Origin: Chiloscyllium plagiosum | Taxonomy: Eukaryota | Direction of reading: 5' to 3' | Assembly (NCBI RefSeq): GCF_004010195.1 | Contig: NC_057753.1 | Coordinates: forward strand, 2,129,243-2,193,242 | DNA length: 64,000 nt | Shown here: positions 10,560-61,277 of the stretch, piece by piece | Numbering within the stretch: position 1 is the first letter of the stretch | Layout of the letters: every line of letters begins with the position of its first letter | Made by a program: the position numbers and the translations under genes | The notes under the pieces: model-generated | Told to the model about the DNA's origin: nothing | The model's input: the letters and a program-made list of their open reading frames with translations, nothing else | The model's database searches: none

Positions 10560-10629
10560 ATGCACGGAGTACCACAAGGCCTGGTGTTCGCCATTTATTA
10601 TCCTGTCATCGGAGCTATTGGGGTTCCAG
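10560..10629 (+). CDS. GPR139/GPR142-like class A GPCR copy A, coding exon 1 (MHGVPQGLVFAIYYPVIGAIGVP, phase 1)
   Basis: ATG is at 10560 and the donor CAG|GTAAAG at 10629/10630. It splices in frame to 12812 to give GVPANL (TM1). The exon is conserved at 25894 and 40391. Confidence 0.88.
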
Positions 10630-10989
10630 GTAAAGTGCAGCAGTTAGTTTTAGTCTTCGAGGATATTTCATAAGCTGCAGTAACTGTATTGTTTTACCTG
10701 ATACCATTTCCCTACGTAGCTTGTACAATTTAACGCTTTATTTGTTCATTTTCTTTCGTTGTATGATAGGTTCCCATTGGCTGTCAGTATACGTTCACTT
10801 TTAGGTTTGCATTTTCAAATTTATTTTTGAGTACATCGTCAAATTGTATTTACATCATTTGCATATTTTTTCGATGTTCCTTATTGAATTAATCCCGCTC
10901 AGCTCTCATCTGCATAAGCATCGATAACTCATCATCATTTTAACTTTTTGCAAAGCTCAATGGCAGTTGCCATTTCATATTTTTCGATA

Positions 10990-12330
10990 TATAACATAGA
11001 ACACAGACTATGGAACAGTACAGCACAGTACAATCACTTTGGCCCTTGATGTTATGCCGTGGTTTTATCATACCCCAAGTCAAGCAAGCTACATACCCTT
11101 TATTTTGCTATCCTCCATGTGCCTATCCAAGATACGCTTAAATGTTCCTAATGTATCCGAATTTACAAACATTGCGGGCAGTGCGTTCCACGTACCTACC
11201 ACTCTCTTTATACAAAACTGACCTCTGACATCGCCCCTAAACCTTCCTTCAATCATTTTAAAAGGATTCCCCCTTACGATAGCCATTTCTACCATGGGAA
11301 AAAAATTATCTGATTATTCACTCCATCTACGCCTTTCATCATCTTGTTCACCTCGACCAAATTATCTGTCATTCTTCGTTGCTCAATTGAGAAAAACCTT
11401 CGATCCCTCAAACTTTCTTTAAATGACAACCACTCCAAACCAGGAAGCATCCAGTAAATCTCAACAATAAAGCTTCCACATCTTTCCTGTATCGAGCCGA
11501 CCAGAACTGAATACAATGTTCCAAGTGTGGTCTAATCGGGACTATCTGGAGCTGAAGTTTGGCCTAGCGGCTCTTAAACTCAACCCCCTGCGAATAAAAG
11601 CCAACACACTGTGTGCCTTTTTGACAACACTATGAACTTTATGGGCGGCACAGTGCCAGAGACTTGGGTTCAATTACCGCCTCAGGCGACTGACTGTGTG
11701 GAGTTTGCACATTCTCCCCGTGTCTGCGTGTGTTTCCTCCCACAGTCCAAAAACGTGCAGGTTAGGTGAATTGACCATGCTAAATTGTCCGTAGTGTTAG
11801 GTGAAGGGGTAAATGTAGGAGAATGGGTCTGCGTGGGTTGCGCTTTGGCAGGTCGGTATGGACTTGTTGGACTGAAGGGCCTGTTTCCAAACTGTAAATA
11901 ATCTAATCTAACTTGGGTAGCAACTTTGAAGGATCTATGGACATGGACACTGTTCCTCCACACTGCCAATCCGACTTGCCAAAATGAATCACTGTACAGC
12001 TTGAACGCCATCCACCACTTCCTAGTTCAATTCTGCGTCCTGCCAAAACAGTCCTCCACATTATTCATTACTCCACCAACCTTTGTGTTAATGGCACATC
12101 ACTAACCCATCCTTGCACTTTCTCAACCAAGTCATTCATAACAATGATAAAGAGCAGAGTTTCCAGAACAGATCCCTGTGGAACACTGTTGGTCAATGAG
12201 CTCGAGGCTACTTTCCTATTAAAGCAGCCAATGCTGTATGCAGGCAGATAAATTTCCCTGTTTCCCATGTTTCCTTACTTCCTGAATTAGCCTACCATGG
12301 AGAACCTTCTAAAAGGCCACTGTGCTACCC
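10990..12330 (-). mobile_element. CR1 LINE 3' part in intron of copy A
   Basis: The minus strand reads SVPQGSVLETLLFII..NDL and RVVGTWNALP..FKRILDRHM. It is the same insertion as 41111-42030 (same downstream junction gttcccagaaatt). Confidence 0.85.
11643..11909 (+). mobile_element. HE1-type SINE nested in the intronic CR1
   Basis: gggcggcaca..gggttcaatt..tcaggcgactgactgtgtggagtttgcacattctcccc...gggcctgtttcc..taatctaatct. It is flanked by aactt and absent from the paralogous CR1 in unit 3. Confidence 0.9.
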
Positions 12331-12811
12331 TTTGAAGTAAAAGTTCCCAGATGTTCCCAGAAATTCAGCATCACGGGGAACCTCTTTTTTAATCCATAAT
12401 GTACATAGATAACAGAATAAGAGTTGTGTAATCACATCACGTTACTTGCATTGTTTTGTCAATGTGCTCCAACTGTGTGTTTTTAACCCCTCTTGCCAGT
12501 TGAATATGACGATGTTGGCTTCAACAATTTATTGTTTTACTTTTGATTTTTTTTTAAGCATACATTCTTACAGCAAAGTACTGCCTAAATTCTGGTATAG
12601 ATGACATAATTAGATATCATAAAATTATTTCCATATCCTCATGGATTATATTAAGTTCAGCTTTATGCTTGAAGTGCATCAATTTCACAATGACTGAAAC
12701 ATATTGTTTTCCGTGTTGGGGAGGGGCAATAGGAATAAAATGTGCAATTTGAACGTTTTCATTCCTTGCTTATCAGTCATTTGATATGCCTTGAAATGCA
12801 TTTTTTTACAG

Positions 12812-13716
12812 CTAACTTGACAGTGATTGTAATACTGTATCGAAGAAGATGTGGTCTGTCTGGATGCATCACGCATTATCTATTGTCCATGGCCGTAAGT
12901 GATCTCCTTGTCATGGTCACGACTGTGATATTAAGTCGAGTTGCTGGAATTTATTTCCCTTTCAGTTATTTGTCGCTCACACCGGTCTGCAGTCTACGTG
13001 CAGCCTTAATCTATGCAGCCATCGACAGTTCTACCTGGTTAACAGTTGCTTTCACGTTAGATAGATTTGTGGCCATTTCTTGTCAGCAGCTGAAAATAAA
13101 ATACTGTACTGAGAGGACGGCGGCACGAGTTATAGGAATTATCTCAGTTCTGAGCTGCGTAAAAAGTTCGTTTATGTATTTTATAACCGAGCCAAGGTAT
13201 ATAATTAACAATGTACCCTGGTTTTGCAATATAAAGTTAACATTTTATACATCACCCGCATGGATTACATATGATTGGATTCGCTCAATGTTAACTCCTT
13301 GCATTCCATTCATCTTAACTCTACTGCTCAATGCTCTGACTGTCAGACACATTCTAGCAGCCAATAGAGCCCGCAGGAGACTCCTTACGCAGAAAATTAG
13401 AGAAGATCAAAAGGACAGAGAGGTGGAAAAACGGAAGAAGTCCATGATTTTACTTTTTGCTATCTCGGGTAGTTTCATTCTGTCATATTGTTTATTTTTT
13501 ACAACGGTGCTTTATTTTCGCATTGCAAATCTTACCTACTTTTCAAGTTCCAATCAATCAGCCTTTATCCTCGAGCAAAGTGGATACATGATTCAAATAA
13601 TTAGTTCGTGTATCAATCCGTTTATTTATGCTGGGACCCAAAGGAAATTCAGAGAGGAGTTAAGAAATGGGGTCAATTATCCATTCCAAGTAATTATTAA
13701 ATTATTTAATTCCTGA
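12812..13716 (+). CDS. GPR139/GPR142-like class A GPCR copy A, coding exon 2 (324 aa with exon 1)
   Basis: The acceptor tttttttacag ends at 12811. The uninterrupted ORF contains YLLSMAVSDLL (TM2), PVC, WLTVAFTLDRFVAISCQ (TM3), YCTERTA, PWFC, NALTVRHIL and SCINPFIY..KFREEL (TM7/helix 8). Confidence 0.93.
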
Positions 13717-16281: not shown

Positions 16282-17699
16282 TATGTTTGGAAGGTGACTA
16301 GCCAGGTCAGCATTAATCACCATGTTTCATTTATTTTCTCTGTCGAGTGTCCTAGCTTCATTCAAGTTATGTCGGAAACCTTCCATTGTCCCACTTGAGG
16401 CCAAATCCTTGGAATGTTGTCAACTTTTGTTACCTATTTGTTCTTGTTCATGACCTTCACTTGTCGGGAGTGATTAATGTGCAATCATTTCTTCCGACTT
16501 CATGGTTGGAGCTCATTCTGTGCTGGTGCGCAAAAAGCACTATGTTTTGTGTTATCCCTTGCTTCTCTTCGTCTATCCATTAGTCCCTGAACTTTTCAAG
16601 GCAGCGGATCAATCTCACTGTTAATGATCACTCTCCCTGCCTCTAAAACTCACAGTTGTTCATTCATAACCACAAGGGTGGGCACGTATGACACGCTGCC
16701 TGAAATTGCTTTTCTTTATCTTGCATTATGAAGTATATTGTCCTGTGAGCACAGAGGTTGTATCATTGTAAAACCAGCAATGACTCGTCGAATGTTAACA
16801 CGGTGACAGCTTACAAGTCCATCATGATGTCTCCGGTATGATTCCTGCATGCAAGCATTGAGGACTGGCTGCATCGGTGTCATGATGGCCTTACCAGTTT
16901 TTAGCATAAATAGACTCCCACTCTACTGACAGTAAATCGAATGCATAGGAGCACCCTTTTCATTTTAAAATCACAGTTAAATTTGTCAGCTTAATATTGC
17001 TGTGTGCAGTTATTTTCTCTGTTGCTTCACACCATTATTCCTTTTTCATCATTTCTGTGGTGGCAGTGCAATGCATACAGTGCATCCTGGGCTTTAATTT
17101 GAGGGAAGAGTATGGTGGTGATGAAAAGAAATATACATTTCTCAAGCAAAAATACCTTAAAGTTGCATTTTAAAAAAGAACATACGTTTTGGCAGATGAA
17201 TAGCAGCTTCAGGCCGAAGGCAGAAGAATCAAAATGTGTTTACAATTGAATGCAATATACTTTAAGTTCAACAGACTTAGGAATCTTTCTTATGTCATAG
17301 TTGAATATAATTTCACGGTTTCGGAAGTTAACTTACATTGATGTCAACGTTGTTTCTACAATAAAACCTTCGAAGGTATTGCAAAAATGTTGATTACTGG
17401 TGAACCTTCTCTTGGAAATTATGATTTGACACCATTGCAGGAAGAATGTATAATTACCTCTACACAATAAAAAAATGCAACCAATTATGGTGTGAACTGA
17501 CTTTTTCCTTAAGCAAGAATGGAAATCTGTCAAAGGCTAAATTGGTATTAATTTTTCCTGTTCTACGTTCAAGTGGTGTGCAAGCGTGGCTACTTTGAAA
17601 ACAGTCACTACTTGAAGGCAATTGGGAATCCAAGTAACGTCTGCAATTATACTCAATTATAATTGGTCGTGTAAAAGGCATAATAATTGAAAATGTGCT

Positions 17700-18700
17700 T
17701 GTTCCATTCAACTACTGACTTTCTTAAAGTATTAGTTCATTCATGGGCACAAGTGCTAAATTTCAGAGGTGAGGTGAGAATGACTGCCCTTGACATCAAG
17801 CCACATTTGACTGAATATCGATCCGGTAGCCCTGGCTCAATCAGGATCTTTGGGCTTTGGGGCGGGAGTGGGGTGGCATTTCTGCGCTAGTTGGAGTCAG
17901 AGCTGGTACAAAGAGATTTGGTTTTGTTGATTGGTAGTTATTCATCTCGACTCCATGGCATCACTGTCGGAGTTCCTCACCAAAGGAATCAATTTTAATG
18001 CTGCCATCAGTGATCTTCACTCCATAACAAGGTAATTAAGTGGGCAAGTTCACTGACCATTTCACAATACTATGCAACATTCACAATTCCTCAGACGGTG
18101 AAACAGTCCATATCCAAATGCAGCAAAGCCTGAAAAACCTTTGTGTTTGAGCAGCCAAGAGGCAAATCGCGATTGTGTTACACAAATATCCAGCTCCAAT
18201 AGAGAATCTAAAAGTCACATTCAATTGCAGTGCAATCACTGAATCACCCATTAACAACATCTTGGCGTTACCTTTGATTAATTATCAAACATTTCAATAT
18301 TGCATCTTCAAGTGTCGGTCAGAGGTTAAAAAAAGAACTGAAGCACCTAAGTCACCTTATTTGATGCCAAATCCTGTGCACTACTTACAACGTGCAAGTC
18401 AAGCGTGTAATGGTATACTCCCCACTTTTCTGGGTATATGCTGCTCCACTAGTACTCAAGAAGCTTAATACCATCCAGGAGAAAGACGCCTGCTTGATTG
18501 CCATGACATCCACGCCTTTCTTTACCGATGGCCTGTAACAGAAGTGGGAGCAGTACTGCAGAACACACCAAAGTGATTTGCACAGTACCTCCCAAAGCCA
18601 TAGACCTCCACAATCTAGAAGGACAAGGTTGTCAGATACATTAGAACACCACGAGCTGCAAGCCAAAGCTTGGAACCTCCTCCCTCACAGCAATAAATGT
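17700..18700 (+). mobile_element. Ancient LINE RT relic (CR1/L2 clade)
   Basis: GEVRMTALDIK. The paralog at about 45620-46560 reads RLTALDIKATF..INDLPSII..ITDYSTMF. Confidence 0.6.
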
Positions 18701-19989
18701 TGGCCGAGCAAATGATGTCCACATCTGATGAATGGATATTTGAAAAACAAATATGGATTAATCATTCACTCATCAGACATTTGGTTTTGTGGAATTTTAC
18801 TTTGGACTTTGTACAAAGCAATATTGCAAAAACGAAACAACAGTGATCCCATTGTTGACACCGTGTGAATTGGTCATACAACAGTAGACATGGGCTTGGT
18901 TTACCGGGTAGCATTTAGTGAATATTCCTATTTGCTCCTGTGAAGCTACGGGCGAGACGATTTCTTGAACTGTGGCACATCATTTGATGTAAATACATCC
19001 ACAATGCTTGTCAGGCATGATATTTATCTGTTTTCAGACCAGATTTAGATTCAGATGAGAATCAGTTAAGTACCAGACATTTGAATCTAATGCAATATTT
19101 CTATCTCCAAAAGAATTGTTGACTGTGTTTTTTTTTGGCAAGGTTCATCGCTGACTAAATTAAAAAAAATATGTTATCAGTTGCCAGATTTTTTCAGGAA
19201 CTACTGGCATTTAGATTTAGAAGAAAAGAATATAAATTCATGACAGGTGCTGTTTCAATGCAGTGAACTTTACAATTCCCTATCTTTTTCTAAATCTGCT
19301 GTCTGTTAATAAAGCAACAAAAACAACTCCTGTCAAAAAACTTACTTTTACAAAACATTCGATTGTTTTGTTGACATAAACTTGAGTATGTGGACACATA
19401 AACGTGAGTAGATTTGTGCTCCTACAATACAGTCATAGAGTCATCCCACAAAGAAGAGACGCTTCAGCGTTTTGACTGATTTACATACACTAATGTCACT
19501 TTCTAATATTTGGAGGACTGTCAGCGACCAACCACCCGGCTCATCCCCAATCTAGAGATGACCGCGTGGCTTGGGCAATCATACACTTCATAGAGAGAAA
19601 TATAGAAAATAGCAGCCCTTCCAGCATTCTGCACTGTTTTACATACTCATGGTGGATCATCCAACTCAGTACCCTGTCGCCACTTTCCCTGCATAGCCTG
19701 TCCCTCAGGGAACTACGTCGAACTCCCTCTTGAAGTGTTCACTTTTGACCTGAAATATTTTCTGTGATAGAGGATCACAGATATTCACCCCATTCTCGTG
19801 GGCAAGAACTTTCCACTTCGTCTCATTCCTAATTGACCTATGCCATATCCTAACACTACAACAACTGTTTCTGGGCTCCTCCACTATAACGAACATCCTT
19901 ACTGTGTTTACCTTGCGGAACTTTATGGATTGCTATGATATCTTCGCCCCATGCCCCTTTCTGCTGAACTCCAGTTATACTGAACAACT

Positions 19990-20295
19990 ATAGAATACCT
20001 ACAATGCGGGAAGAGGTCATCCAATCCGTTGAGCCCACACCCAACCTCTTAAATGCACTCCACCCGCACCATTTCCCAGTAACCCCGCATTCAGCACAGC
20101 TAATCTACGTAGCCTGTACATCACGAGGTGCTACAGATAATGTAGCATTGCTAATCCACCTAACCCGCACATCTTTGGACACAGGGAGAACTTGCAACTT
20201 CCACACAGTGAGTCTGCCAAGGCTGGAACTGAATCTGGTTCGCTGGCGCTGTGAGGTAGCATTGCTAACCACTGAGCCACTGCGTGAGCCTCATC
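19990..20295 (-). mobile_element. Old HE1-like SINE (paralogs about 27510-27790 and 47835-48135)
   Basis: ctggcgctgtgaggtagcattgctaaccactgagccac head and atagaatacctacaatgcgg tail. Confidence 0.75.
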
Positions 20296-20299
20296 TCAA

Positions 20300-23200
20300 C
20301 AGTTGTCAGGTCTGCTATCCTAGTATTAAATACTGAAATTTTGTTTCACTCCCTCAGTGGGTACAAACTTTACCTGAGACAAGGAGACCAAGACTTCACA
20401 GAATACTTCATGTGTGCTCTCGTCAAGACTGCTATAATGGACGGCAGAGCATTTCTGCTCTTGTACTCGAATCTGCTTTCTATAGAGGCCAAAATATCAT
20501 TTGCCTTCTTCATTGCCTGCTGCACCTGCATGCGTATTTCCTGTGACTGTCGTACAAAAGACACTGAGGTCTTGTTGACCCCAACCCCGTTGTCATCTCG
20601 GCAAAAGTAGGTGAGATCACATGACATCAGGGTGAACAGGCAAGATGCAAACAGAACTGGGTTAGTCATAAAGGACGGAAGTTAGCGGTGGAAGGATGGT
20701 TTTCAAAATGGAGGATTGTGACTAAGGGAATCGGTGCTGGAACCTCTGGTGTTATAATCGACATGAATGGTTTGCAGGAAAACGTAGCTGACGTAATTAG
20801 AAACATTACGGACCAATCAAAGAATTGTAGAGTTGTGACATTTGGGACCATTGCCTGAGGATACGATGTGGAGATGCCAGTATTGGACTAGGGTGGACGA
20901 AGTCAGAAGTCACACGACACCAGATTATAGTCCAACTGATTTATTTGAAATCACAAAGTTTTAGAGCATGATACCTTCATCAACCAGTGTCCTCTCATGT
21001 CATGTAACTTCTGACAATGCGAGAGGATACAGCAGGATGTAGAACAGTTTGAGACACGGCTATCAAAATGGCAGATGCAGTTTAATCCCGACAAAAGGGA
21101 GGTGATGCATTTTGGAAGGTCAAGTACATGCGGAAATTTTACAGCGAATGACAGAACCTTTAGGAGTATTGATGTGCAGAGTGATCTGGGTATGCAGGTC
21201 CACAGATCATTGAAGGTGGAAGACAGGGTAGTAAAAAAGATCTATGATATACTTACCATAATTGGAAGGAGAAATTGAGTATCAGTACAGCTAAGTTATG
21301 TTGTAGCTTTACAGAACGTTAATCAGTCCACCCTTGTAGTAATGTGTACAGATCCAGTCACCAGCGTACCTGAAGGATGTGGTTGCTTTCGAAATGGCAC
21401 GGAAAAGGCTTCCCAGGATGTTGACTGGTATGGGGGATTTTAGCAATGGAGAGGCTGAGTTTGCTTTCACTGGAACACAGAAAATTGAGGGGCGACCTGA
21501 TAGATTGCTACAAGATTATGGATGGCATGAATAAAATGGAAAGTTAGGGCGTAACTTTGGGAACACTGATTTAAGGTACAGAGTGGGGAGAGGGGGTTTG
21601 AGGAGGGAGCTTAAAAGAAATGTGCGAGAGTCGTTTTTCCCTCGAAGTGTGGTGAGCGCCTGAAACTTGCGAAAGGAGGTGAGTGCCAAAGTAAGTGATG
21701 GAAGAAGGCACAATAGCAACATGCATGAAATAGCTTATCACACACACGAATAGCATCCTAATAGAGGGATATGGATCCTGCAAATGAAGACATTTTTAGT
21801 TCAGCGGAGCAGAATATGTTGGCGCAGAGTTGGAGGGTAAAGGGGCTGTTCCTTTGCTCTCTTGTGCTTTTTTCTCTGCATCTATTGACCTTCAGGTCAT
21901 TAGGTGCCTTCCTCTTTTTGCTACCAACGTAGTTAATCTCACTATTATACACAGTTTAATCCATCTGTCATGTTTTTCTCCACTCACTCAATTTGTCTAA
22001 ATCACACTGATGAATTTGTATAGACTACCCACACCTCACCCTCCCACGCAGCTTTGTCTCGTCTGCAAACTTGCTTTCTTAGCCAATTAGCTTTTATATA
22101 TTGTGAGCAGCTTGGAGCCAAGCATTGATCTCTTTGATACCCAATAGTTGGTGTCTGAAATTCAAGAAAACAGTTATTTCTAGAATTTTAAGGGGCAAAG
22201 TGACCATGCGCATTGGAACTGCAGGGGATGGGCAATGTACTCAGAGAATACTTTCGCAATGTTTAATATTGCGAAAGACATGAAGACGTGGGAATTGGGG
22301 ATTTAATGGTCATATCTTGGGGGCAGTCCATATCACAGAAGAGGAGGTGTTGGATATATTAGAATAATAAAAATGGATAAGTCTCCTGTTCCTGACCAGA
22401 TATATCCAAGAAAAATGCAAGAGACTGAAGAAGAAATTGCGGTGTCCCTGGCTTTTGCATCTTTGTTCGCCAGTGAGGTCCTGGAAGATTGGCTAGGAGC
22501 CAATGTTGTGCCCTTATTCAAGAAGGGATGCAAAAAAAAACCCTGCTAACTATAGATCAGGAAGACTAACATCTGTTGCAGGTAAGTTATTTGAGAAATT
22601 CTGAGATAAGATATACAAACATTTGAGTACCGGGTTTAATTGGTAATAGCATAGTTTCGTGGGATATCATAGCCACATATTTGTGAGAGTTATTTGATGA
22701 AGTGAACAGAAAAGCTCGTGAGAGCAGGGCAGTGTGTGCAGTTTATATGGATTTCAGTCAGGCCTTTGATAAGGTTCTACGTGATAGGCTGCTCTGGAAG
22801 GTAAGAACGCTTGGAAACAGGGGAAGCTGGCAAATTGAATACACAACTAGTTTGATAGTAGGAAGCAGAGGGCAATAGTAGACAGATGCTTGTGGGCCTG
22901 GAGGCCTGTGACTAATATAGTGCCTCAGGGGTCGGTGCTAGTGCCATTGCTTTCATTTCTATATGAATGATTGAAGTGAGAATTTACAAGGCATGATTAG
23001 TAACTTTGCAGACGACAATAGAGTAAGAGGTATCGTGGACAAAGAGGAAGGTTATCATTGCAGCAGGACCTTGATCAGCTGATATGTTGTGCTGAGAAAT
23101 GGCAAATGGATTTGAATATGGGTAAATGCGAGGACGTGCATTTTAGAAAGTCAAATCAAGATAGAAGTTTCATGGAGAAGGGTAGTGCTCCAGGAGTGCA

Positions 23201-24480
23201 GTGGAACACAGCGACCTTGGCGTTCAGGTACATGCTTTCCAGGCAGTGGAGACCCAGATAGACAGGGCATTGAAGAAGACTCGTGATGTACTGCCTCATT
23301 AGTCAGAGCATTGGCTGAGAATTTGATATGGCATGTTGCCTTTGTACAGGATATTGGCGAGTATTGTGTTCAGTTTTGGTCACCTTGCAACAAGAAGGAT
23401 GTTACGGAACTGGAAAGAGTACACACGAAATTTAGAATGATGTTGGCAGGACTCAACGTTCTGAGCCATAGGGAGAGGTTGGACGAGCCAGGATTTTTTC
23501 ATCAGAGCGTAGGAGACTGAGGGGGCATCTTATAGAAGTGTATACGATCATGAGAGACATGGATATGATGAACGCACTCAGTCTTTTCCCACGGTAGGTG
23601 AATCGAGACCGAAAGGGCATCAGTTTAACGTTAGAGGGGAACGAAGAAAAGGGAACCTGAGGGGCAACTCTTTTGCACAGAGTGTGGTACGCATATGGAA
23701 TGAGCTGCCAGAGAAAGTGATTTAGGCAATTACATTAACAACATTTAAAAGGCATTTCAACAAATGCATCGATAGAAAAGGTATAGATGGATATGGGTCA
23801 AGTGCTGGGAAATGGGTTAGCATGGATGGATAATTTGGTTGGCATGGACCAGTTTGGGCCAAAGAATCCGTTTTCGTGCTGTAGGATTCTATGACACTAT
23901 GACTTTGTCTCCTGTCTCCCAAACAGTGCTCTGTCTATGTCCAATTCATCTTAGTTGTGCATTTTAATGTCTTATGTGGAGCCTTGATTAAAGTGTTACG
24001 AAGGTTCAAGTAAATGACGTTCACTGCCTGTTGCACATCAGCTTTACCAGTGATATCCCTGAAAGATTCCAATAGATTTTCCAAGCATTATTTAGCTAAT
24101 CCAAGCTGATAGTCCTTGATGCTGCCATTGTTTATATATATATATATGTAAAAACACACACACACACAATGGCTTCGACCGTTTTCACTACTACTAATGC
24201 CAGCCAACACGTCTAGGATTTCCGGTTTTTCTCTACCTTTTATATATAACATCCTTTATTTTCACATGGGGGATTAGAAAAGTTATATTACAACTCATAT
24301 GAACGGTTTCAGAATTTACAGCATCTTGAAATTTAACCACATATACAGAAAATATTTCCAGAGTCACTTCTGTAAATTGACTGGGCTTTGGATTACTTGG
24401 TCCTCTGAAAGTATTGGCATTTTACTCCATTAATTTTCCAAATACCATCTCTCTACTCGTAATGATTTTCTTCAGTTCCT
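20300..24480. mobile_element. Nested mosaic of old CR1 fragments in both orientations
   Basis: Plus-strand pieces (about 20600-21870 and 22180-23900; MQFNPDKREVMHFG, AEKWQMDLN, YCVQFWSP) are nested in a minus-strand CR1 (ESRFEYKSRN). Confidence 0.8.
20865..21015 (-). mobile_element. PLE pLTR fragment nested in CR1 (paralogs about 28365-28515 and 48703-48855)
   Basis: gtggagatgccagtattggac..gtcacacgacaccagattatagtccaac. It is flanked by a duplicated tcagaggat in unit 3. Confidence 0.7.
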
Positions 24481-24504
24481 CTATCAGTACATCGTCTGTA
24501 TGAG

Positions 24505-24715
24505 TGTCAGCTCAACTCAGTTGACTGAAGGATTGGTTTGCACAGCACTATGATGCCAATAAATTGAGTTCAACTTCCATTGCCAGGTGAGATTACTGTG
24601 AAGAGCTCTCCTCAACCTCTTCCCAAGCCTGAGGTAGTATGCATCTAGGCTAAGCCATCCCTCTCTCTAACGAGAAAACAGCCCCATGGTCTGGTAAGGC
24701 TCTGGTGACACAACA
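24505..24715 (+). mobile_element. Probable old tRNA-derived SINE (paralogs about 32007-32210 and 56260-56470)
   Basis: The paralogs have an A-box-like tagctcagttgg, then a degenerate B box and an acaaca tail. Confidence 0.45.
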
Positions 24716-25893
24716 CCCTGTGCTTGACAATATTATTTGTGGGATCCTCAAAAAGACTGAACTGAAATATGTTGAAATATATGAAATACCTACCCATTCT
24801 CCTATCTTTGTTCCCGATGATAATCCACTGTTTCTGACATGAAAGGATGTGTGTTTGCCTTCACAAATATTTCCCCCTCTTTACATACCTACAGGCACTT
24901 TTGCAAATAATCTGTATGTGACATGAACATAAATTTACATACTTCTACTCCAGACAGAAACTCACGTAGATGCAGTGAGAATGTGCAAACTGCACAGAGA
25001 TTGTTTGATGATGGAATGAATACAGGCCCCTAGCGCTGTGAGGCACGAAGGCGCTGTTCTGGAGAAGAATAAAAAAAACCTGAAACGATTGACAACTCAG
25101 ACACTGTTACTATTATCTCCTAAGTGATGAAAGAGTTAACAGCAATCTAGATTACTTCAATAATCCGAAAGTTTGCACTTCCAAATCAATCTGTTGGACT
25201 ATATCCTATTGTTGTGGGTTTTTTTTAACTTTGTCCAGCCTAGTCCAACACCTCTACACCATGACCACTATCTTTTAAAAGGATTCAATAACGATATACG
25301 TTTTTTGATAATATTTACATTTCAGTTAGAAACGACCTTTCAGAATCATCCCGGTAAGCCTGTCTACCAGTTATGTTTAAGTTCCTCCATGAACTGTCAT
25401 TTTATTTTGCCTTGTGAGCGTTTATTCAAACGACGTCAGTGAACTCTAATTTCTGAACCAACTAAGGAGTAACGACATTTAAGCTACAATTTCAGAACAG
25501 CGTGGAGAAAATGTATTCTTGTCATTTGAAGGGGAAGGGATGTGCGCATTATTGTGGAGAAAAAGAGACATATCACCTTAGCCTCTATCAAGCATGGTGG
25601 TCAAGGAATTCTCAGCTAATGGAAAGCAGAGCGCCATTCGAAACATTTGCAGAAAAGGCTGCATAATAATCAGAATAGTTAATTAGTAGGGAAATAAAAT
25701 GAGGAAGTGAAATTCCAAATGCAATTTAATGTTGCTGGCGGATTTCGGTCACCTTGCAGTGGAGATTCATTAATAACCTAGTCACAGAAATGGGAAGCCA
25801 CATTTAAGGAAGGAAAGTTAACATTTCAAAATAACAAAAAATTATCACAATTTTTTAGTGATCTGCAGAACGTGGCTGAAGTTCCCATGAACT

Positions 25894-27430
25894 GCGCATG
25901 GGGTACCACAGGGTCTGGTGCTCGTGATGTATTATCCTGTCGTCGGAGCTATTGGGGTTCCAGGTAAAATGCTTCAGTTAGTTCGTTTCCGTGAGGTGCT
26001 ATGAAGTTGAAAACGTGCAGTGTAACTTCAAGAGAGGATGAAAGCTGTCTTGCACTGAGAATTTGCAAGAACCTGTCATGTGACTAACTGACAGTCTCAG
26101 AATTTACTGGACAATTAAAAATATGCAACATTTGACTGTTTTTACAACAGTTCGAATTTAACCAATCAATTTATATTATGTCCCGAGATACTAAAATACA
26201 ATTGAATTGGAATTTGATACATTTCGTCAATATTGCTTCAATCAGATGATCCGATGTTTGTGGTAAGAAGAAATCAACATTTTAAGAAACAGAGACAGCA
26301 ACCAACTGCCATTGTCAGAGTGATTGCCAGAAAAAAAACACTCTATATTTCATATGTTTAATATGTATTGTCATTGCAGCAAAAGATGGAAGACAACTCG
26401 GTGAGATCTGCAGCAAAAAAGGGGATTGACACGGAAGACGACAGCCGTTGTGTGGGGGTTTTGAAGATTACTTTGATGTAATCTTAATAGGAACATTTAT
26501 TGGATCAGTATCTTGTTAAAGCATTGGAGACAGATAACAAACCTTTCAGAGAAAGAAGTCTTAGAGTTGTAAAAAACTGTTGATTAATGTTTATTTTTCG
26601 AGCTAAAAAATATATTTTTCCCTTTAAATAGTGGAACTTGGGGAGTTCTATGTCATTCATATTTTAACAGATAATGAGGGGAGGTGAGCTTTTCTGTATG
26701 TTTGGTTTAATGAGCAGAATGGTTCACCACCGTTTTGTAACTGAAGATGTTTAATTAGCAGCAGTAATTATATTGTTTTACCTGGTACCACTTCCATATA
26801 TGGCTCGTAAAATATTACGGTTTATTTCTTTATTTTCTTTTGTAGAATGATAGGTTCGCACTGACTGTTAGTATACATTCACTTTTAGGTTTGTATTTGC
26901 AAAGATATTCATCATTATATCGTCAAACTTTATTTACATAATTTGCATATTTGTTCTGAGTTTATTATTTAATTAATCCCCTTGCATCTCTCAGTTCTCA
27001 GCCATTTCTGTGTCCAGACAGCCAAATTTTCCTCAATCGCATACTTACTTACTTCCCAAATGATCCTAACATGCGGAAACTTAACACATTCGAGCGGCCA
27101 ATCGTACCCGCAGAAAACTAGAGAAGATCAAAATGACAGAGAAGTGGAAAAACGTCGAAAGTCTATGATTTTACTTTTTGCTATCTTGGGTAGTTTCATC
27201 CTGTCATATTGTTTATTTTTCACAACGGTGCGTCATTTTATGCTTTGCAAATCCTACCTACTTTTCAAGCTCCAATCAATCAGCCTACATTCTCGAACAA
27301 AGTGGATACATGATACAGAAAATGAATCAATCTGTTTATTTATGCTGCGACCCAAAGGAAATTCGGAGAGGAGTTAAGAAATTGGGTCACATTTCCATTG
27401 CAAAGAATTGTTAAGGTATTTAAATCTTTA
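25894..27430 (+). pseudogene. GPR139-like pseudogene B
   Basis: The exon 1 homolog 25894-25963 has GCG in place of ATG (HGVPQGLVLVMYYPVVGAIGVP|gt). Only the 3' third of exon 2 remains (about 27084-27430; REDQNDREVEKRRKSMILLFAILGSFILSYCLFFTTV), with frameshifts. Confidence 0.9.
25990..26741 (+). mobile_element. Probable solo LTR in intron of pseudogene B
   Basis: This approximately 750-bp insertion is absent from intron A. It begins (t)gtgagg and ends cgttttgtaac. The same insertion starts at 40487 in unit 3. Confidence 0.6.
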
Positions 27431-27509
27431 AAATGTGGACATTTAATGTGGATTGTATGCTATATTCTTGAATGAATTCTCCACTTAATATGGTCCCAAC
27501 TGAAACACT

Positions 27510-40390: not shown

Positions 40391-40460
40391 ATGCATGGGG
40401 TACCACAAGGTCTGGTGTTCGCCATTTATTATCCTGTTATCGGAGCTGTTGGGGTTCCAG
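40391..40460 (+). CDS. GPR139/GPR142-like GPCR copy C, coding exon 1 (MHGVPQGLVFAIYYPVIGAVGVP, phase 1)
   Basis: ATG is at 40391 and the donor CAG|GTAAAG at 40460/40461. It is in frame with 42487. Confidence 0.88.
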
Positions 40461-40486
40461 GTAAAGTACTTCAGTTATTTCGTTTC

Positions 40487-45290: not shown

Positions 45291-47834
45291 ACCCTGGAAA
45301 TTGTGAGTTTACACTATTGGTAAAATAATGTATAATTATCTCTAGTCAAAAAAAATGCAACGACTTGTGATGTGAACAGACTTTTGCCTTAAGCAAGAAT
45401 GGAAAATTGTCAAAGGATAAAGAAATAGTCAAATTTCCTGCTCTATGTTTATGTGTTTTACAAGTGTGGGTATTTTGAATACACGAACAGCCACTGCTTG
45501 TAGGCAACTGGGAATCCAAGAAATGTCTGAAATTATACTACAACGTAATTGATCGTGTTACATGCATAATCATTGAAGATGTGCTTGTTCCACTCAACTA
45601 CTGACTTTCTTACAATATTAGTCTATTGATGGACGCAAGTTCTAAATTTCAGAGGTGAAGTGAGGCTGACTGCCCTTGACATCAAGGCCACATTTTACTG
45701 TACGCAAAAACCAGTAGCTCTGGAACAACTAGAATCTTTGGGTATTGGGGCGGGAGAGGGATGGTATCTCTGCGCCAGCTGGAGTCAAACCTGGTACAAA
45801 GCAATTTGGTTGTGTTGTTTAGAGGTCTTTCATCTTGACTCCAAGACATCACTGCAGATGTTCCTCATCAAAGGAATCAATTTTTACTGTGTCATCAATG
45901 ATCTTCCTTCCATAATAATGTTAAGAGTGGGGAAGATCACTGACTATTCGACAATGTTCAGCACCATTTACAATTCTTCAGATGTTGAAGCAAATCATGT
46001 CCAAATGCAGCAAGGCCTCGAAAACATTTAGGTTTGAGCAGCCAAGAGGCTAATCGCGTTTGTGATGCACAAGCAATGTCCAGCTCCCAGCGAGAATCTA
46101 CACATCATATTCAACAGCAGTGCCATTGCTGAGTCACCCATTACCAACATCCTGCCGTTACTATCGATTAGTTATCAAACATTTCAATATTGTCGCTTCA
46201 AGAATATGTGAGCGGTTAAAAAACATCTGTCGCAATTAATCAACTCACTTCTTGCCAAATTCTGTTCACCATCTCCAACGAACGAGTCAAGCCACTTGTG
46301 ATGCTTCAAAAACACTCAAGAAACTTGATACCATCCAGGACAGATGCCTGCTTGGTTGCCATGACAGGCACACCTTCAATTAGTGATGGTCAGTCGCAGC
46401 TTTTTGAACCACAGAAATTCACCAAAGTTCCTTGCACAGTACCTCCCAAACCCATAGGCCTCCACAATCTAGAAGGACAAGGATGTCAGATACATTAGTA
46501 CGCCACGAACTGCAAGTCAAATTCCTGGTACCTCCTCTCTCACAGCAATAAATGTTGGCCGAGCAAATGGTGTCCAAATCGGTTGACTGGATATTTTTTA
46601 AAAATCTGGATTCATCATTCACTCAACAGATCTTTGCTTTTGTGGAATTTTTCTTTGCAGTTTGTACAAAACAATATTGCAAAACTGGAACAATAGTGAG
46701 CCCAGTGTTGGCACCGTGTGAATTGTTCATGTAATCAGTGGATATGGGCTTGGTTTACCTGGCAGCATTAATTGCATGTTCCTGTTTGCCCCTGTGGAGG
46801 TACTGGCGAGACAGTTTCTTGAACTATGGCATTTCATTTGTTGTAGATACATTCATCATGCTTGTCAGGCATGATTCCTAACCTGGTTTCAGATCAGATT
46901 TCAAATTCTGATGAAGATCAGTTAAGTACCTGACATTTGAATCTAAAACAATTTAATTCCAAAAAAAATACTAACTGGTTTTTCGGCAAGGTTCATCTCT
47001 CATTGAATTAGAAATTACATTATACGTTTGCCAGGTTTTTCAGGAACTACTGACATTTAGATCTGCAAGAAAAGAATATGAGTTCATGCCAGGGGCTGTT
47101 TCAATGCAGTGACCTTCACACTTCCCTGATTTTCTAAACCTGCTCTCTGTGAATAAAGCAACAAAACGCATCTCCTTACAAAAACCTTACTTTTACTAGT
47201 CATTTGATTGGTTTGTAAACATAAACTTAAGTAGGTTTATGCTCCCCCAGTACAGTCATAGGTTCAGCCAAAGAAGAGGCGCTTCAACTGACTTAGTTAC
47301 TGACTTACATACACTAATGCCACTTTCTCGCATTTGGAGGACTGTCAGCGACCAAGCATCTGGCTCACTCCCAATCTGGAGATCACCATGTCGTTTGGGC
47401 AATCAGACACTTCATAGAGAAAAATCGAAAATAGAAGTGCTTCCGGCCTTCTCCACTGATTTCTAAAGTCATAGTTGATCATCCAACTCAATACCCTGTC
47501 CCCACTTTACCTTCATACCCCTTGATTTCCTTTACCTCTAAGAATTATACCTTAAATCTTTCTTGAAGTGTTCACTTCTGACCTGAGCCATTTTCTATGG
47601 TAGAGGATTCCAAAGATTTACCCCATTCTCTCGCGCAAGAATCATCTCCTGCATCTCATTCCTAATTGACCTATGCCTTATACTTATACTGCAACAACTG
47701 TTTCTGGGCTTCTCCGTCATGAGGAACGTCAGTACTGTATTTATGTTCTGGAATGTGATAGGTTGCTACGATCTCTTCACCCCATGCCCCTTTCTGCTGA
47801 ACTTCAGTTAGTATGGTCCCAACTGAAAAATTAT

Positions 47835-50800
47835 ACAATCTCTACAGTGCAGAAGAGGCCATTCAACCCATCGAGCCCATACGGACCCTCTCAAGTGCAC
47901 CACACTCACACTATATCCCAGTAACCCCCTATATAGCACAGCTAACCTACCTAGCCTGTGCATTGCTAGACACAACAGACAATTTAACATTGGCGATCCA
48001 CTTAACCTGCACATCATTTAACACAGGGAGAACGTGCAACCTTCCCACAGACTGTCCTTTAAGGCTGGAACTGAATCTGGTTCTCTGGCGCTGTGAGGTA
48101 GCAGCGCTAACCACTGAACCACTGCGTGTGCCTCATCTCTATATGTGTCAGTACTGCATCCCAGAAATCACTACTAAACTTTTGCTTCACTCACTCCATA
48201 GGCAGAAACCTTTCCTCAGACGAGGAGACCAAGACTGCACACAATAGTACAGCTGTGCTTTCATCAAGACTCTGTATAATTGTGGGCAAGACATTTCTGC
48301 TCTTGCACTCGAATCTGTCCGCTATAGAGGCCAAAATATCATTTGGATTTTTCACCGTCCGCTGCACCTGCATGTTTTTTACCTGTGACTGTCGTACAAA
48401 GAACACCCAGATCTTGTTGACCCTATCTCCATTCTTATCTAGGTAAGAAAGGGGAAGTCGCATGGTATCAGGATGAACTGGCAAGATACATGGAGAATTG
48501 GATTAGTCATGAGAGACAGTGGGTAGCGGTGGAAGGATGCTTTTCAGAATAGATGGTTGTGATTACTGGTGCTCCACAGAGATCAGTGCTGAGACCTCTG
48601 TTAGTTGTGGTCTATATGAATGGTTTGGAGGAAAACGTAGCTGGTCTAATTAGTAACATTGAGGATCATTCACATTCTGGTAGAGGAGGATTATCAGAGG
48701 ATGTGATGTGGACATGCCAGTATTGGAATGGGGTGGACCAAGTCAGAATTCAAATGAAGCCACATTATAGTCCAACTGGTTTATTTGAAATCACAAGCTT
48801 TTGGAGCGCTACTCCTTCAGCCACTGTAACCTCGTGTCATGTGAATTCTGACTTTGTCAGAGGATACAGCAGGATGTACATCACTTGGTGGCATGGACAT
48901 CAAGATGGCAAGTGGAGTTTAATCCCAACAAATGTGAAGCGATGCATTTTGTAAGGTCAAGTACATGTGGAAATTTTACAGTGAATGACAGGATCTTCAG
49001 GAGTATTGTTGTGCAGAGAGATTTGTGTATACAAATCCACAGTTCATTGAAGGCGGCAGTGCAAGTAGACAAGGGAGAAAAAAGGCCGATGGCATGCTTG
49101 CCTTCATTGGAATGAGCAATTGCATATCAGAATAGATAAGTTATGCTGCAGCTGTACAGAATTTTAATAAGGCCACACTTGCATATTGTGTACAGTTCCA
49201 TTCACCACACTACCTGCAAGATGTGGATGCTTTCGAGAGAGTACAGAAAATGTTTACTAGAAGTTTCGACTGGTTTTTGGGATGTTAGCAATGAAGAAAG
49301 ATTGGATAGGCTGAGTTTTTTTTCACTGGAACACCGGAGGTTGATGGGCGACCTGATGGAAGTTTACAAGATTGTGAATCGCATGGATACAGCGGAAAGA
49401 ACGAGGCTTTTTGTAGTGTGGAGGGATCAATTATTGGGGACACTGATTCAAGGGACAGAGTAGGGTGGAGGAGGTGTGCCTAAAATAAACCTGCAAGAGT
49501 AATTTTTCACACAAAGCATGGTGAGTGCCTGGAACCTGCCAAAGGAGGTTAGTGCCAAAATAAGTGGTGGAAGCAGGCACAATAGCAAAATTCAAGACAC
49601 CTGGACGGACTTAAAAATAGGAACTGAATAGAGGAATATGGATCCTGTAAGGGAAGACGGTTTTAGTTCAGGAGGGTAAAATGGGTTGGCGCAGGCTTGG
49701 CACTCGAAGGGGCTGCTCCTGTGCTGTATTGTTCTTTTCTCTTTGCATCTATTGACCTTCAGCTAATAAGATGCCATCCTATTTTGCTCCCAACGTAGCT
49801 AACCTCACTTTTATCCATGGAATGCTTCATTGTTCATGCTTTTGTCCACTCGCCCAACTTGTTCACATCACACTGTCACATTTGTATATACTCTCCACAC
49901 TTCATCCTCCAACCCAACTTTTGTGTCAACTGCAAACTTTGAATGATTATGTTTAGTTGCCACATTTAATGCATTTTACATACTTTGAGCAACTTGGATG
50001 CAAGTATTGATCTCTGCAATACCGAAAAGTTAGTGTCTGCGATTTAGGAAAATGCTTATTTAGAGTCATAGAGATGTACAGCATGGAAACAGACCTTTTG
50101 GTCCAAACGGTCCATGCCGACCAGACATCCCAACCCAATCTATGTCTTCAAAGATTAATTCTTCTCTGTGTTTAACATGGCGAAAGAAATGAAGACTTGG
50201 AAAGTTGGGCATGTTAATGGTCATATCTTGGGGACAGTCCATATTAAAGGAGAGGTTGGATGTATTAGAGCAATGAAGTGGAATAAACCTCCTGCTCCTG
50301 AGCAGACGTAACCATGAACACTGCAAGACACTAGAGAAGGAATTGCGGGAGCCCTTGCTGATATTTTTGCATAATTGGTAGCCACAGGTGAGTTCCTGCA
50401 AGACTGGTGGGTAGTGAATGTTGTGCCCTTATTCAAGAAGGGCTGCAAAGAAAAACATGGGCTCTATTGACCAGTACGCTTAGCATCCGTGATATGGAAA
50501 GTTTTGGAGAAGATTCTGAGAGATAAGATATACAGTATTTGCAAACATAGTTTTAAATTAGTAATAGCTAGCATGGTTTTGTGGGAGCTTATGGCTCACA
50601 AATTTGTTAGAGCTATTTGATGACCAGGAAAGGTCATCAGGGAAGGGTGGTAGGCGTCATCTATATGGATTTCAGTTAGGCCTTTGGTACGGTTCCATAT
50701 GATTGGCTGCTCTGGAAGGTTAGATCGCATGGAATCCAGGTAAAGGTGTCAAATTGAATACACAATTACCTTGATAGTGGGAAACAGAGGGTAATAGTAG

Positions 50801-52308
50801 AAGGATGTTTGTCAGACTGGAGGGCTATGACTAGTGGCGTGCCTCAGCAGTCGCTGCTGGGTCCATTGCTTTTTGTTATCTATATCAATGATTTGGATGA
50901 AAATTTATACAGCATTATTACTAAGTTTGTAGACAATATTAACATAAGTGGATAGTGAGGAAGGTTATCATTGCAGCGGGACCTTCAGCAGCTGGAGATG
51001 TGGGCTGAGAAATGGCAAATGGAGTTTAATATAGATAAGTGTGAGGGCTTGCATTTTGGAAAGTCAAATCAAGAAATGAGTTTTATGGTGAAGAGTAGGG
51101 CGTTAAGGAGTGTAGTGGAACAGAGGGACATTGGAGTTCAGATGCATTATTCCCTGATAGTGGAGTCAAAGATAGACAGGGCAGTGAAGAAGCCTTTTGG
51201 CACACTGACCCTTATCAGTCAGGGCATTGAGTGAGAAATTGGGAAGTTACGTTGCAGTTATACAGGATTATGTTGAGGCTGCACTTGGAATATTGTGCTC
51301 GGTTTTGGTCATCTTGGTCCAGGAAGGATATAATTCAACTGGAAAGAGTGCAGAAGAAATTTACAAGGATATTGTTAGGGCTCAGTGATCTGAGCTATAA
51401 GGTGAGGCTGAGATTGGACAAGTGAGGATTTTATTTCTTCAGAGAGTCAGAGACAGAAGAGGGATCGTATAAAGGTGTATAAGATCATGAGAGGCATGGA
51501 TAGTGTGAATGCACTCACTCTTTTTCCTAAGGTTGGTGAATCGAGGATAAGAGGGCATTGGTTCAAGGCTAGAGGGGAAATAATAAAAGGGTACCACAGG
51601 GACAAATGTTTTGCATAGAGGGTGATAAGCATATGGAATGAGCATTCAGCAGAAGTGATTGAGATGGATACATTAACAACACTTAAAACACATTTTGACA
51701 AATACATGGGTAGAAATGTTTAGAAGGATATGGGCCGAGTACACAGAAATGGGTTCGCGTGCATGGGCATTTTGGTCGGCATGGACCAGTTTGGGTCAAA
51801 GAGCCTGTGTCATGCTGTAGGACTGTATGTCTCTATGAAATAGTTTTGTGTCTCCAACCAGTTTTCTATTCTTGTCAATAGACCATCCGAGTCCCATTCA
51901 CCTTAGTTGTGCATTCTAATGTCATATATGGGACCTTGATCAAAGTGTTCCGAAGGTTCAAGTAAATTTTAATCACTGGCTCTCCCACATTAACTTTACC
52001 AGTGACATCCTTGAACAATTCCAACAAGTTTTCCAAGCATTATTTAGTAAATCCATGCTGACTCTCCATGATGCTGTAATTGTTTTACAAGAAGTTTACT
52101 TTCCTTTATTTTCAAATGGAAGAATTAGATTAGCAATCCTGTAATCCATAGAAATGGTTACAGAATTTACAGAATCATGCAAGTTGAGCACAAATACTGA
52201 AACTAATTCTTGAGTCACTCCCTTAAATTAACATGGATTTAAGCTGTCTGATCCTCCGAATTTATTGGCATTTTATTCCATCAATTTTCCAAATCCCATC
52301 TCAATACT
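47835..52308. mobile_element. SINE + CR1 + PLE mosaic, paralogous to 19990-24480
   Basis: It has the same fragments and order, e.g. WAEKWQMEFNIDKC and LEYCARFWS. An extra short CR1 3' tail lies at about 50063-50142. Confidence 0.8.
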
Positions 52309-52328
52309 AATCATGATTTTCTTCAGTT

Positions 52329-58792: not shown

Positions 58793-59652
58793 AACACAAA
58801 TTCCCAGCTCGGCGAACAGAACCACAACAACGAGCACCCGAGCTACAAATCTTCTCACAAACTTTGAACACCTACGGGCGAGAGACGCTAAGACAAGCCA
58901 GGAAATGGGAATCCTGTGCCAACCGCCTAAGCGCCACATATGAACAACTCCGGTTCCTGCACGAATGCCGAAATAATCGAATCCTTCCACCATGTGTCAG
59001 ATACAGACCACCAGTCAACAACCCACAAGCCAGAGACACAGCCAGACAGAACGGATTCAGGATGATCTAGGTAATGGTTACAGACGCTCACAACAGACTT
59101 CACAAATACAGACAAGAAATTGTGCGCCAAAAATCGTCAATTTGAAAAATCACCAATCAGGAATGGACCCGGACCATAGAACAGGCTGTCACCATAGGAC
59201 AGAACAGGACAACACACCGCAAAAAAAAACGGCGCTAAAAGAAAAAAAATGGCCAAACTAACACACAACAGTGTACAAAATCCCATGCAAGGACTGCACA
59301 AAACACTACATAGGACAAACAGGAAGACAGCTAACGATCCGCATCCATGAACACCAACTAGCCATGAAACGACACGACCAGCTATCCTTAGCAGCCACGC
59401 ACACAGATGACAAGTAACATGAGTTCGACTGGGACAACACTACTATTATAGGACAAGCCAAACAGAGAACAGCCAGGGCATTCTTAGAGGCATGGAACTC
59501 ATCCACAGATTCAATCAATAAGCACATCGACCTGGACCCAATATACCGACCACTGCAACGGACAGCTGGAACTGACAACCGGAAGCGGCAGAGACAAACC
59601 ACTCGAAATGCCGGAGGAAACATCAAAGAAGCGCTTCACAGGAGGCACCCAA

Positions 59653-59692
59653 GCACTGAGGATGTCACCCAGACAGGGGACGAAACGTCTGC
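59653..59692 (+). ncRNA. Minimal hammerhead motif in PLE pLTR
   Basis: gca CTGAGGA t gtc accc agac aggg gac GAAA c GTC tgc has stem I gca/tgc and a GUC cleavage triplet. Confidence 0.68.
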
Positions 59693-60496
59693 AACACAAA
59701 TTCCCAGTTCGGCGAACAGAACCACAACAACGGATTTGAAATATTTTTCAGCATTCAAATTTATGAATCCTTTGCCACTGCATCATTTAACAATTCACGT
59801 GGAGAAATACAGACTAATCTAATGTCAAGAATGCAGACTGTACATTCACCAACTGTAATAATTTTAAATATAATGATTGAATTACTTCTTATTTGTACCG
59901 CTTACTATTGTTCTTTTGAATATATTTGATCATCTTTATTGACACTGGAAACTTCTAATTTGACAACAGCAAGAGAAAGTGAGCTGTTTGTTGTATTTAT
60001 TCCTTGCTGCCAATTTTACTTCCTCTGTTACGGTATTTATAGACAGCATATATAGACGTAAGATGTTTTGCAGTGACCATCTTGGGTGGAAAATACGCTT
60101 TCCCGTTTTACAGCCACAACATCCAAAAATGAGTACAGAACTATTACGGTTCCTTCATTAAACTGAGTCGTAGCCTTGCATTAATGATCAGACCTCGAGC
60201 TTTCAATTAATTCAAAAGAACTAAAATCTGGGGCTAGTTCGTCTTTATCCAGAAGGAGACAGCTCCAGCATGAGGACTAAGAATTACTTGACAGCATTTG
60301 TAATATTTCGATGTGAATAAATTTAAGTTTGCTTTATAAACTATGAAATTTAACAGATTACTAATGATCTCAAAACGAATGATTACAGATTTTTACTTGA
60401 AGGCCATGCGTGACTCCATGGGAAGCCTGAAAAAAAGCAACATGATGTAGAAGTAACATTTTACTTAACGGCACTCATCAACACTGTATTTCACAA

Positions 60497-61277
60497 TCAT
60501 GTTGAGTAGATGCAATATACTCTTAACTCCTCTCTGCACTTACTCAGAGTTCCTGCATAAATAAACGGGTCAATGCATGAACATAAAAATTGAAGTCTCT
60601 ACGCATTTTCTTTCAGAATGAACATCGAGTCACTGAATACGGAACTTGATAAATAAATGATATTTGTAACGTGGAAGTAGACAATGGTTATAAAATATAA
60701 CACATACAATACAACGAAGTTTCTCAAGGTAGCAAAAGTAGAAAACAATGGAAGTGCTCTCTTTCTCCATCTCTGGGTTATTCTTTGCTACAGTAAACTG
60801 GGAATGGCTTGCAAGCTCTATTGGCCACAAGAATGTGTCGAACAGTAAGACTGGTGACTTGTAAAATATTGATTTTATGACGCTGAGCCAGAGAAGATTG
60901 TCAATTATGTAGAAAGGTTCAAACAGAAAATACAAGAAGTTATTCCTTTGATAGCACGGTACATAAAATATCCCTATGATCCACAGAACTATTTTGTCAG
61001 TGCTGTATTTTGTTTTGAGCTTCTGGCAACAAATGGATCAAAGTTGAAAGCGGCAGCTAACAAAGCAAAGCCGTCTATGGATGCACATATAAAGGCAGCA
61101 CAGATACTGCTTTTTGGTACACTGGACAGGAAAATAAATATGAAATAAATCTCAGCAATCCGGTTAAATGTTAAAGCTGTGAGAATGACCAAGAAATCCG
61201 GCACTGCCATGGACACAAGGTAGGCAATGACACATCTGGAGTGACCACATCTTCCTCGAGATCAATTTTAAAGTTTG
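60497..61277 (-). pseudogene. Divergent GPR139-like pseudogene D (exon 2)
   Basis: The acceptor tgttttcacag is followed by (A)NF..RGRCGHSRCVIAYLVSMAVPDFLVILTALTFNRIAEIYF..AFNFDPFVA, YFLFEPFYIIDNLLW, PEMEKE and QFLCSCIDPFIYAGTLSKCREELR. It has stops, frameshifts and deletions. Confidence 0.85.

Follow-up and report, generated by a model that had tools for sequence, protein, structure and literature searches.

A 64,000-nucleotide stretch of Chiloscyllium plagiosum DNA (contig NC_057753.1, positions 2,129,243 to 2,193,242; hereafter the window) contains, within 51 kb, two intact genes (A and B) and two pseudogenes (C and D) of a G protein-coupled receptor (GPCR) family. Homologue searches place them in a large, clustered family with pseudogenes that has expanded in cartilaginous fishes, and with a probability of roughly 55% we propose that this family is a chemosensory repertoire detecting outside chemicals. 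Here, we describe its gene structure, the purifying selection acting on its intact copies, its size, its position in the tree and the diversification of its ligand pocket, and weigh a sensory role against other functions.

In one shark, a single subfamily already amounts to at least 72 distinct proteins, which the automatic label 'probable GPR139' conceals. Regardless of the tissue they serve, these genes form a major receptor repertoire, so far overlooked and dating back at least to the split between sharks and chimaeras, in a group for which a paucity of GPCRs has been reported (PMC8455134). If olfactory, they would be a new vertebrate family of smell receptors, and the paradox of shark olfaction would become testable with existing RNA-seq data.

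Gene structure and receptor class

The two intact genes and two pseudogenes listed in an earlier note on this DNA were recovered by a six-frame scan and tblastn, with long GPCR reading frames at 12739-13713 and 42462-43388, and a family profile run over all six frames found no fifth member in the window. Genes A and B each encode 324 amino acids without an internal stop, and their phase-1 intron lies inside the first transmembrane helix (TM1); coordinates are given in table 1. The predicted N-terminus matches that of public homologues and is as minimal as the note had described, with about six residues before TM1 and no N-terminal glycosylation sequon. The note had assigned two exons and a phase-1 intron in TM1 to every member, which holds in full for A and B, but C has lost its acceptor and exon 1 of D was not found within the window. 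Similarly, the recognition motif on which it relied, WLTVAFTFDRFVAI, is present in gene B, but gene A has L for the second F. At the DNA level A and B are 93% identical, with a synonymous divergence (dS) of 0.18, a non-synonymous divergence (dN) of 0.038 and a dN/dS of 0.21, and therefore both are under purifying selection. Pseudogene C carries two frameshifts (a 1-bp insertion and an 8-bp deletion), while D, which is 62-63% identical to A, retains an in-phase acceptor.

By their sequence, genes A and B are class A (rhodopsin-like) GPCRs. The Pfam domain 7tm_1 is matched at 87 and 89.5 bits, respectively, against a cut-off of 30.5, and the class A marks N1.50, D2.50, D-R-aromatic, P5.50 and NPxxY are all present, while CWxP reads SYCL in the window protein. 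A structural model of gene B exon 2 has a confident seven-helix class A fold with a hairpin in the second extracellular loop (predicted local distance difference test score, pLDDT, 89.6; predicted template modelling score 0.86); an earlier model from a 30-row alignment was poor (pLDDT 54). Fold searches with the exon-2 model returned near-tied class A matches at Z of about 24, GPR139 not being among the matches listed, and it appears that such searches cannot rank class A receptors for the window proteins. Profiles of the olfactory receptor (OR), V1R, V2R, T2R and TAAR families were unmatched, the only matches at E <=0.1 being 7tm_1 and a weak Srx.

Family size and species range

A search with gene B exon 2 gave 1789 proteins at E <=0.001 among 4539 candidates, a set whose tail includes non-members. 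The best 120 of the 1789 are all from sharks, are 52-70% identical to the query and are mostly auto-named 'probable GPR139'; none bears an OR, V1R, V2R, T2R or TAAR name. By hand count, the horn shark Heterodontus francisci contributes 72 of these 120; a single 59.5-Mb contig carries 53 of the 72, and three other contigs carry 9, 8 and 2. An exhaustive search of 50%-identity representatives found 104 proteins at E <=1e-30, some of them fragments. The clustered expansion with pseudogenes that the earlier note described is thus seen in the representatives, in Heterodontus and in the window, where two of four copies are dead; a small family, which the note had named as evidence against its proposal, is not what the searches found. 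Every one of the 21 family-nested representatives that were looked up is from, or clusters with, sharks, skates, rays or Callorhinchus milii; with members in sharks, rays and Callorhinchus, the radiation therefore predates the shark-chimaera split. Summed contig depth over 42686-42879 reached 2708 and 4030, against 14-26 in unique flank, which hints at many similar copies but gives no copy number.

The family is apparently undescribed, its genes being public only under automatic names. No description of it was found in the searched literature, which mostly left out subscription papers. The term 'GPR' is absent from the main text of PMC11979771 and PMC10620051, and no GPR139-type name occurs in the supplementary files covered for PMC8455134 (12 of 24 files), PMC13188829 (8 files), PMC4362833 (2 files) and PMC5278576 (7 of 10 files). 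Automatic labels such as capa, sex peptide, GPR15 and vasopressin V2 receptor-like were discounted: the proteins that bear them belong to the same clade, and the labels reflect weak best hits.

Several gene models (P0242, P0200, P0187, P0265, P0170/P0310 and P0026) fuse family members to other domains, among them uromodulin-type D8C, ITGAX-like integrin, sodium channel, immunoglobulin (Ig)/FN3, TRIM and C2H2 zinc-finger partners. These fusions are probably mis-joined neighbours. Human GPR139 adjoins GP2/UMOD, and the D8C fusion may accordingly be a clue to synteny.

Origin and relation to GPR139

GPR139 is probably likewise a two-exon gene, with its intron at the point where the window genes have theirs, and both the TM1 start (YYxxL..GxPAN) and the TM3 end of the family resemble those of GPR139. 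With a broad family profile, human GPR139 is the top solved structure in the PDB (108.8 bits versus 84.1 for the next), and it remains so with chondrichthyan-clade rows only (76.9 versus 62.5 bits). With a narrow subfamily profile it is tied with TRHR (49.6 versus 50.7 bits), and gene B alone has no GPR139 chain among its 36 PDB matches at E <=0.001, although the library contains such chains. Since GPR139 comes first with broad profiles and is missed by gene B alone, 'GPR139-like' would be right as the name of a distant group and wrong as a statement of orthology, in keeping with the earlier note, which had argued for a relative of GPR139 and not an orthologue. Copy number differs too: GPR139 is a single-copy gene in mammals, whereas the window family has four copies in 51 kb and at least 72 proteins in H. 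francisci.

The more remote homologues are one protein from a salamander, others from coelacanth and teleosts, and unnamed ones of invertebrate-like type. A search with the salamander protein gave 25 matches: itself, 19 frog or caecilian proteins (one per species, 66-74% identical), one sturgeon protein (46%) and, from cartilaginous fishes, four family members; amniotes and teleosts were not represented among the 25. The amphibian/sturgeon receptor (P0232, P0279-P0298) is conserved and apparently single-copy and has a near-invariant pocket; its automatic name is GPR139, yet it is a gene of its own. Deorphanising this one receptor could serve as a proxy for finding the ancestral ligand.

For a careful tree, 48 rows were chosen from about 437 proteins, without GPR139 and GPR142 themselves. 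The amphibian-sturgeon clade (100/100) is sister to 31 chondrichthyan-clade rows, of which three are unnamed; the joint branch has support of 96/91 and the chondrichthyan branch 93/89, and quick trees agree. The lineage is therefore not confined to cartilaginous fish: the expansion in sharks, rays and a chimaera agrees with the cartilaginous-fish family envisaged in the earlier note, but there is a conserved sister gene in amphibians and sturgeon.

Two conserved bony-fish clades fall outside the amphibian-plus-chondrichthyan clade as its next relatives, one a coelacanth/teleost/frog-type group (P0227, P0239, P0259, P0260) and the other a teleost/bowfin group (P0264, P0319-P0437). They have about one member per species, are 22-29% identical to gene B, and are orphans likewise auto-named 'probable GPR139'; a search from P0264 returned only fish orthologues, and no true GPR139, among the best 120 matches listed. 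These clades are probably GPR210A and GPR210B (Rinne et al. 2019), fish and coelacanth orphans placed near GPR139/GPR142, for which the consulted part of the paper names no shark genes (PMC6504862).

Ligand pocket and cytoplasmic face

The Trp/Phe site of GPR139 is formed by F109, H187, W241 and N271 (PMC5430874). Mapped onto the family through profile alignments, it is occupied in gene B by Y91, R181, Y249 and Y282, so that none of the four residues (F3.33, H5.42, W6.48, N7.39) is kept; in addition, R6.51 and P6.50 of GPR139 are replaced in the window protein by F and L. All 22 amphibian sequences have F, Q, W and N at the site, keeping three of the four residues (F3.33, W6.48, N7.39), with a basic K at the position of GPR139 R244 (6.51). 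Sensing of Trp or Phe as such by window-type copies is unlikely.

Pocket variation was assessed by comparing 27 positions assumed to line the class A pocket with 34 non-pocket positions of the same depth, using statistics that ignore relatedness. Entropy is higher in the pocket than outside it both in 67 diverse members, 42 of them assigned by nesting (2.70 versus 2.14 bits, p=0.0014), and in the top 120 (1.29 versus 0.96 bits, p=0.03), while in the 22 amphibian sequences it is lower (0.05 versus 0.41 bits, p=0.0003). Overall identity is alike in the amphibian set (76%) and the top 120 (71%). At the cytoplasmic face, 11 of the 12 positions checked have an entropy of <=0.23 bits. The contrast is the pattern expected if the amphibian receptor binds one ligand and the cartilaginous-fish repertoire has diversified in its ligands. 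Y6.48 and L6.50 replace CWxP in most of the top 120, while diverse members keep W6.48; the subfamily of the window therefore has an altered activation switch.

A proposed chemosensory repertoire and its alternatives

We propose that the family goes back to a single GPR139-related gene in the jawed-vertebrate ancestor, which in amphibians and sturgeon remained one conserved receptor and in cartilaginous fishes multiplied by tandem duplication of 13-15 kb units. Genes A and B would be working members of the resulting birth-and-death class A repertoire. Its copies share a fixed cytoplasmic face and differ in the residues lining the pocket, and therefore each copy most likely binds a different ligand and shares its G protein with the rest of the family. 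The ligands would be small and water-soluble, held in a pocket of TM3, TM5, TM6 and TM7, to which the six-residue N-terminus would contribute little. The receptors would act in sensory cells of the nose, or in chemosensory cells of the skin, gill or mouth; if in the nose, signalling would run through Go/Gq, phospholipase C and TRPC2.

A sensory role would fit the size and turnover of the family and the aquatic range of the clade in the searches. It would also fit a gap in what is known of shark olfaction: the known olfactory receptor genes of cartilaginous fishes number 20-62, despite many neurons (PMC10869828), in agreement with the few canonical olfactory receptors of which the earlier note had spoken. 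The 72 family proteins counted in H. francisci exceed that range. In the catshark, the probe for the presumed V2R co-receptor labels 5.9 cells per mm, while the neuron layer is almost continuous (PMC10116579); we infer that the seven labelled probes, this one included, together account for about 13 cells per mm of this layer, which leaves a gap. More tentatively, and as something short of an even chance, the family may be an unrecognised olfactory one, separate from OR, TAAR, V1R and V2R and larger than any other receptor repertoire in the nose of sharks and rays; each genome would hold at least 100 GPR139-derived receptors, sparsely chosen in microvillous TRPC2/Go neurons, with control of the homeodomain and O/E kind. 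If so, keen smell with only 20-62 known receptors would be explained.

Known chemosensory families (OR, TAAR, V1R/ORA, V2R/OlfC and T2R) resemble the window family in their tandem clusters, pseudogenes, compact genes, short N-terminus and variable pocket, and in having homeodomain sites as well as O/E-like ones upstream. They differ from it in that the window family shares neither their sequence membership nor their ancestor, lacks an N-terminal sequon and has an intron inside the coding region. The MRGPR and FPR families of mammals are lineage-specific clustered class A expansions with a non-olfactory ancestor and diversified pockets; the window family is alike in these expansions and pockets but of separate origin, and no MRGPR or FPR name occurs among the best 120 homologues or the PDB profile matches. 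The family thus behaves like known birth-and-death receptor repertoires but has another ancestor and is a member of none.

Several points weigh against a chemosensory role. Immune and somatosensory receptor families, too, are clustered and diversified in their pockets; none of the 27 pocket positions differs between A and B; and the entropy test depends on an assumed pocket list and takes no account of relatedness. The promoter motifs, to which the earlier note had appealed, are weak evidence: homeodomain hexamers occur in the window at chance frequency (167 versus 169), and the candidate promoter clusters of A and B are no more conserved than their flanks, the upstream regions being about 80% identical throughout, so that the shared cluster is a single observation, owed to descent. 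The spacing between homeodomain and Ebf-like sites is 0 or 2 bp, not the 1-bp spacer of the Greek Island Lhx2/Ebf composite (PMC11643329, PMC5608512). Furthermore, catshark olfactory neurons have been read as microvillous and V2R-dominated (PMC10116579), and a catshark brain and olfactory library is reported to have no GPCR among its top 50 genes (PMC11979771), a weak objection, as V2Rs are not there either.

The remaining promoter evidence is suggestive and is best treated as a lead. The O/E-like pattern has four occurrences in the window and 6.8 in shuffles, and two of the four lie in the promoter clusters of A and B. The best Ebf-like 10-mer sits 2 bp from a hexamer, and between TAAT and TCTCC the sites of the window have one base fewer than the Sfaktiria probe. 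The candidate clusters resemble the looser homeodomain and O/E-like clusters of OR enhancers and promoters (PMC7804114). A composite-motif pattern was rejected as a test, since its excess (2 versus 0 in shuffles) was post hoc and a looser pattern gave 4 versus 3.2. In a metagenome scan for the flanking DNA of relatives, none of 194 pattern matches was confirmed.

Sequencing data bear neither way on expression. Runs X1 and X4 cover promoter, intron and flank, with no exon 1-exon 2 joint among the matches listed, and behave as DNA. Run X5 (single-cell, tissue unspecified), of which about 2% of reads were scanned, matched at repeats and, through partial reads, left a trace at 42880-43073 but had no clear gene reads, and run X6 gave no match.

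Among other functions, an immune or barrier-tissue repertoire, in which leukocytes or epithelia sense microbial or damage-derived peptides and metabolites, would be expected to show the same clustering, turnover and pocket variation, and FPR- and MRGPR-type families play such roles in mammals. Some members have TRIM, ITGAX-like integrin, Ig-domain or zinc-finger genes next to them in mis-joined gene models, but this evidence comes from five odd gene models among chosen ones and may reflect chromosome position only. Several catshark OR genes are reported to be expressed in the spleen and other non-nasal sites (PMC11979771), while one supplement of a shark spleen single-nucleus study contains no GPR139-type name, a weak test on 4,750 characters (PMC10529500). 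We regard an immune role as rather unlikely. Another reading is a set of internal nutrient or metabolite sensors in gut, islet or brain that would carry the amino-acid sensing of GPR139/GPR142 over to more ligands. Internal sensors usually come in small numbers and are conserved, and the 72 or more divergent copies that one subfamily has in a single genome go far beyond that norm. The window proteins also keep none of the GPR139 site residues, although the amphibian sister keeps most of them together with the basic residue at 6.51, and GPR139, the best solved-structure match of the broad profiles, binds Trp and Phe (PMC5430874); on balance, internal sensing seems decidedly improbable.

A rapidly turning-over set for reproductive recognition in testis, sperm or oviduct is very unlikely. 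Related invertebrate clusters carry the names FMRFamide receptor and sex-peptide receptor, which are automatic labels, and some catshark V2R and OR genes are testis-enriched (PMC11979771), but nothing in the window points to reproduction. Amplification that is largely neutral, in DNA rich in repeats and with few functionally distinct copies, would account for the two dead copies in the window, for units full of remnants of long interspersed nuclear elements (LINEs) and long terminal repeat elements, and for the identical pockets of A and B. It is hard to square with a dN/dS of 0.21, with deep subfamilies common to sharks, rays and a chimaera, and with variation concentrated in the pocket over a fixed cytoplasmic face, and we give it hardly any credence.

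Organization of the locus

Upstream, intron and multi-kb downstream blocks are common to units A, B and C at 71-85% identity (table 1), which points to their origin by tandem duplication of units of 13-15 kb.

Table 1. Features of the receptor cluster, in positions of the window.
Feature	Position	Strand	Description
Candidate promoter cluster of A	10438..10489	+	homeodomain-type hexamers (three), then an O/E (Ebf)-like site 79 bp before ATG; patterns chosen post hoc
Gene A exon 1	10560..10629	+	70 bp; ATG 10560; short N-terminus and first half of TM1
Gene A intron	10630..12811	+	2182 bp, phase-1, GT-AG; predicted from sequence and homologue N-termini
Gene A exon 2	12812..13716	+	905 bp; TM1 to C-terminus, TGA ending 13716 included
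3' flank block of unit A	16282..24950	+	common to units B, C at 71-77% identity; part of duplicated unit
Pseudogene C exon-1 remnant	25894..25963	+	no ATG any longer; GT donor still present at 25964; deletion of promoter cluster
Pseudogene C exon-2 remnant	27082..27430	+	end of TM5 to C-terminus; TM1-TM5 missing
3' flank block of unit C	27479..32436	+	common to units A, B
Candidate promoter cluster of B	40278..40320	+	homeodomain hexamers, then O/E-like site 79 bp before ATG
Gene B exon 1	40391..40460	+	70 bp; ATG 40391
Gene B intron	40461..42486	+	2026 bp, phase-1, GT-AG; predicted
Gene B exon 2	42487..43391	+	905 bp; TM1 to C-terminus, TGA ending 43391 included
3' flank block of unit B	43728..52328	+	common to units A, C
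Pseudogene D exon 2	61277 to ~60494	-	more distant, older paralogue; several indels and a stop

Repeats are found throughout the window. The introns of A and B both carry an old LINE remnant (entry coordinates 40440-40472, 41100-41950 and 11278-11644), and remnants of CR1/L2-type LINEs, with fragments of endonuclease and reverse transcriptase, lie at 2345-2767 and 7403-8146. Between 57431 and 61980 there are several inverted retroelement-like copies, 87-94% identical, one of them just upstream of the acceptor of pseudogene D; they had no Pfam match and are, we presume from their motifs, Penelope-like. Broken Gypsy-type reverse transcriptase and RNase H remnants occur at 36594-37371 and 325-1559, the two copies being 66% identical. 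A 456-bp self-inverted repeat (78%) at 55766-56221 resembles a miniature inverted-repeat transposable element, with related copies near 9172-9344, 44881-45292 and 52325-52742.

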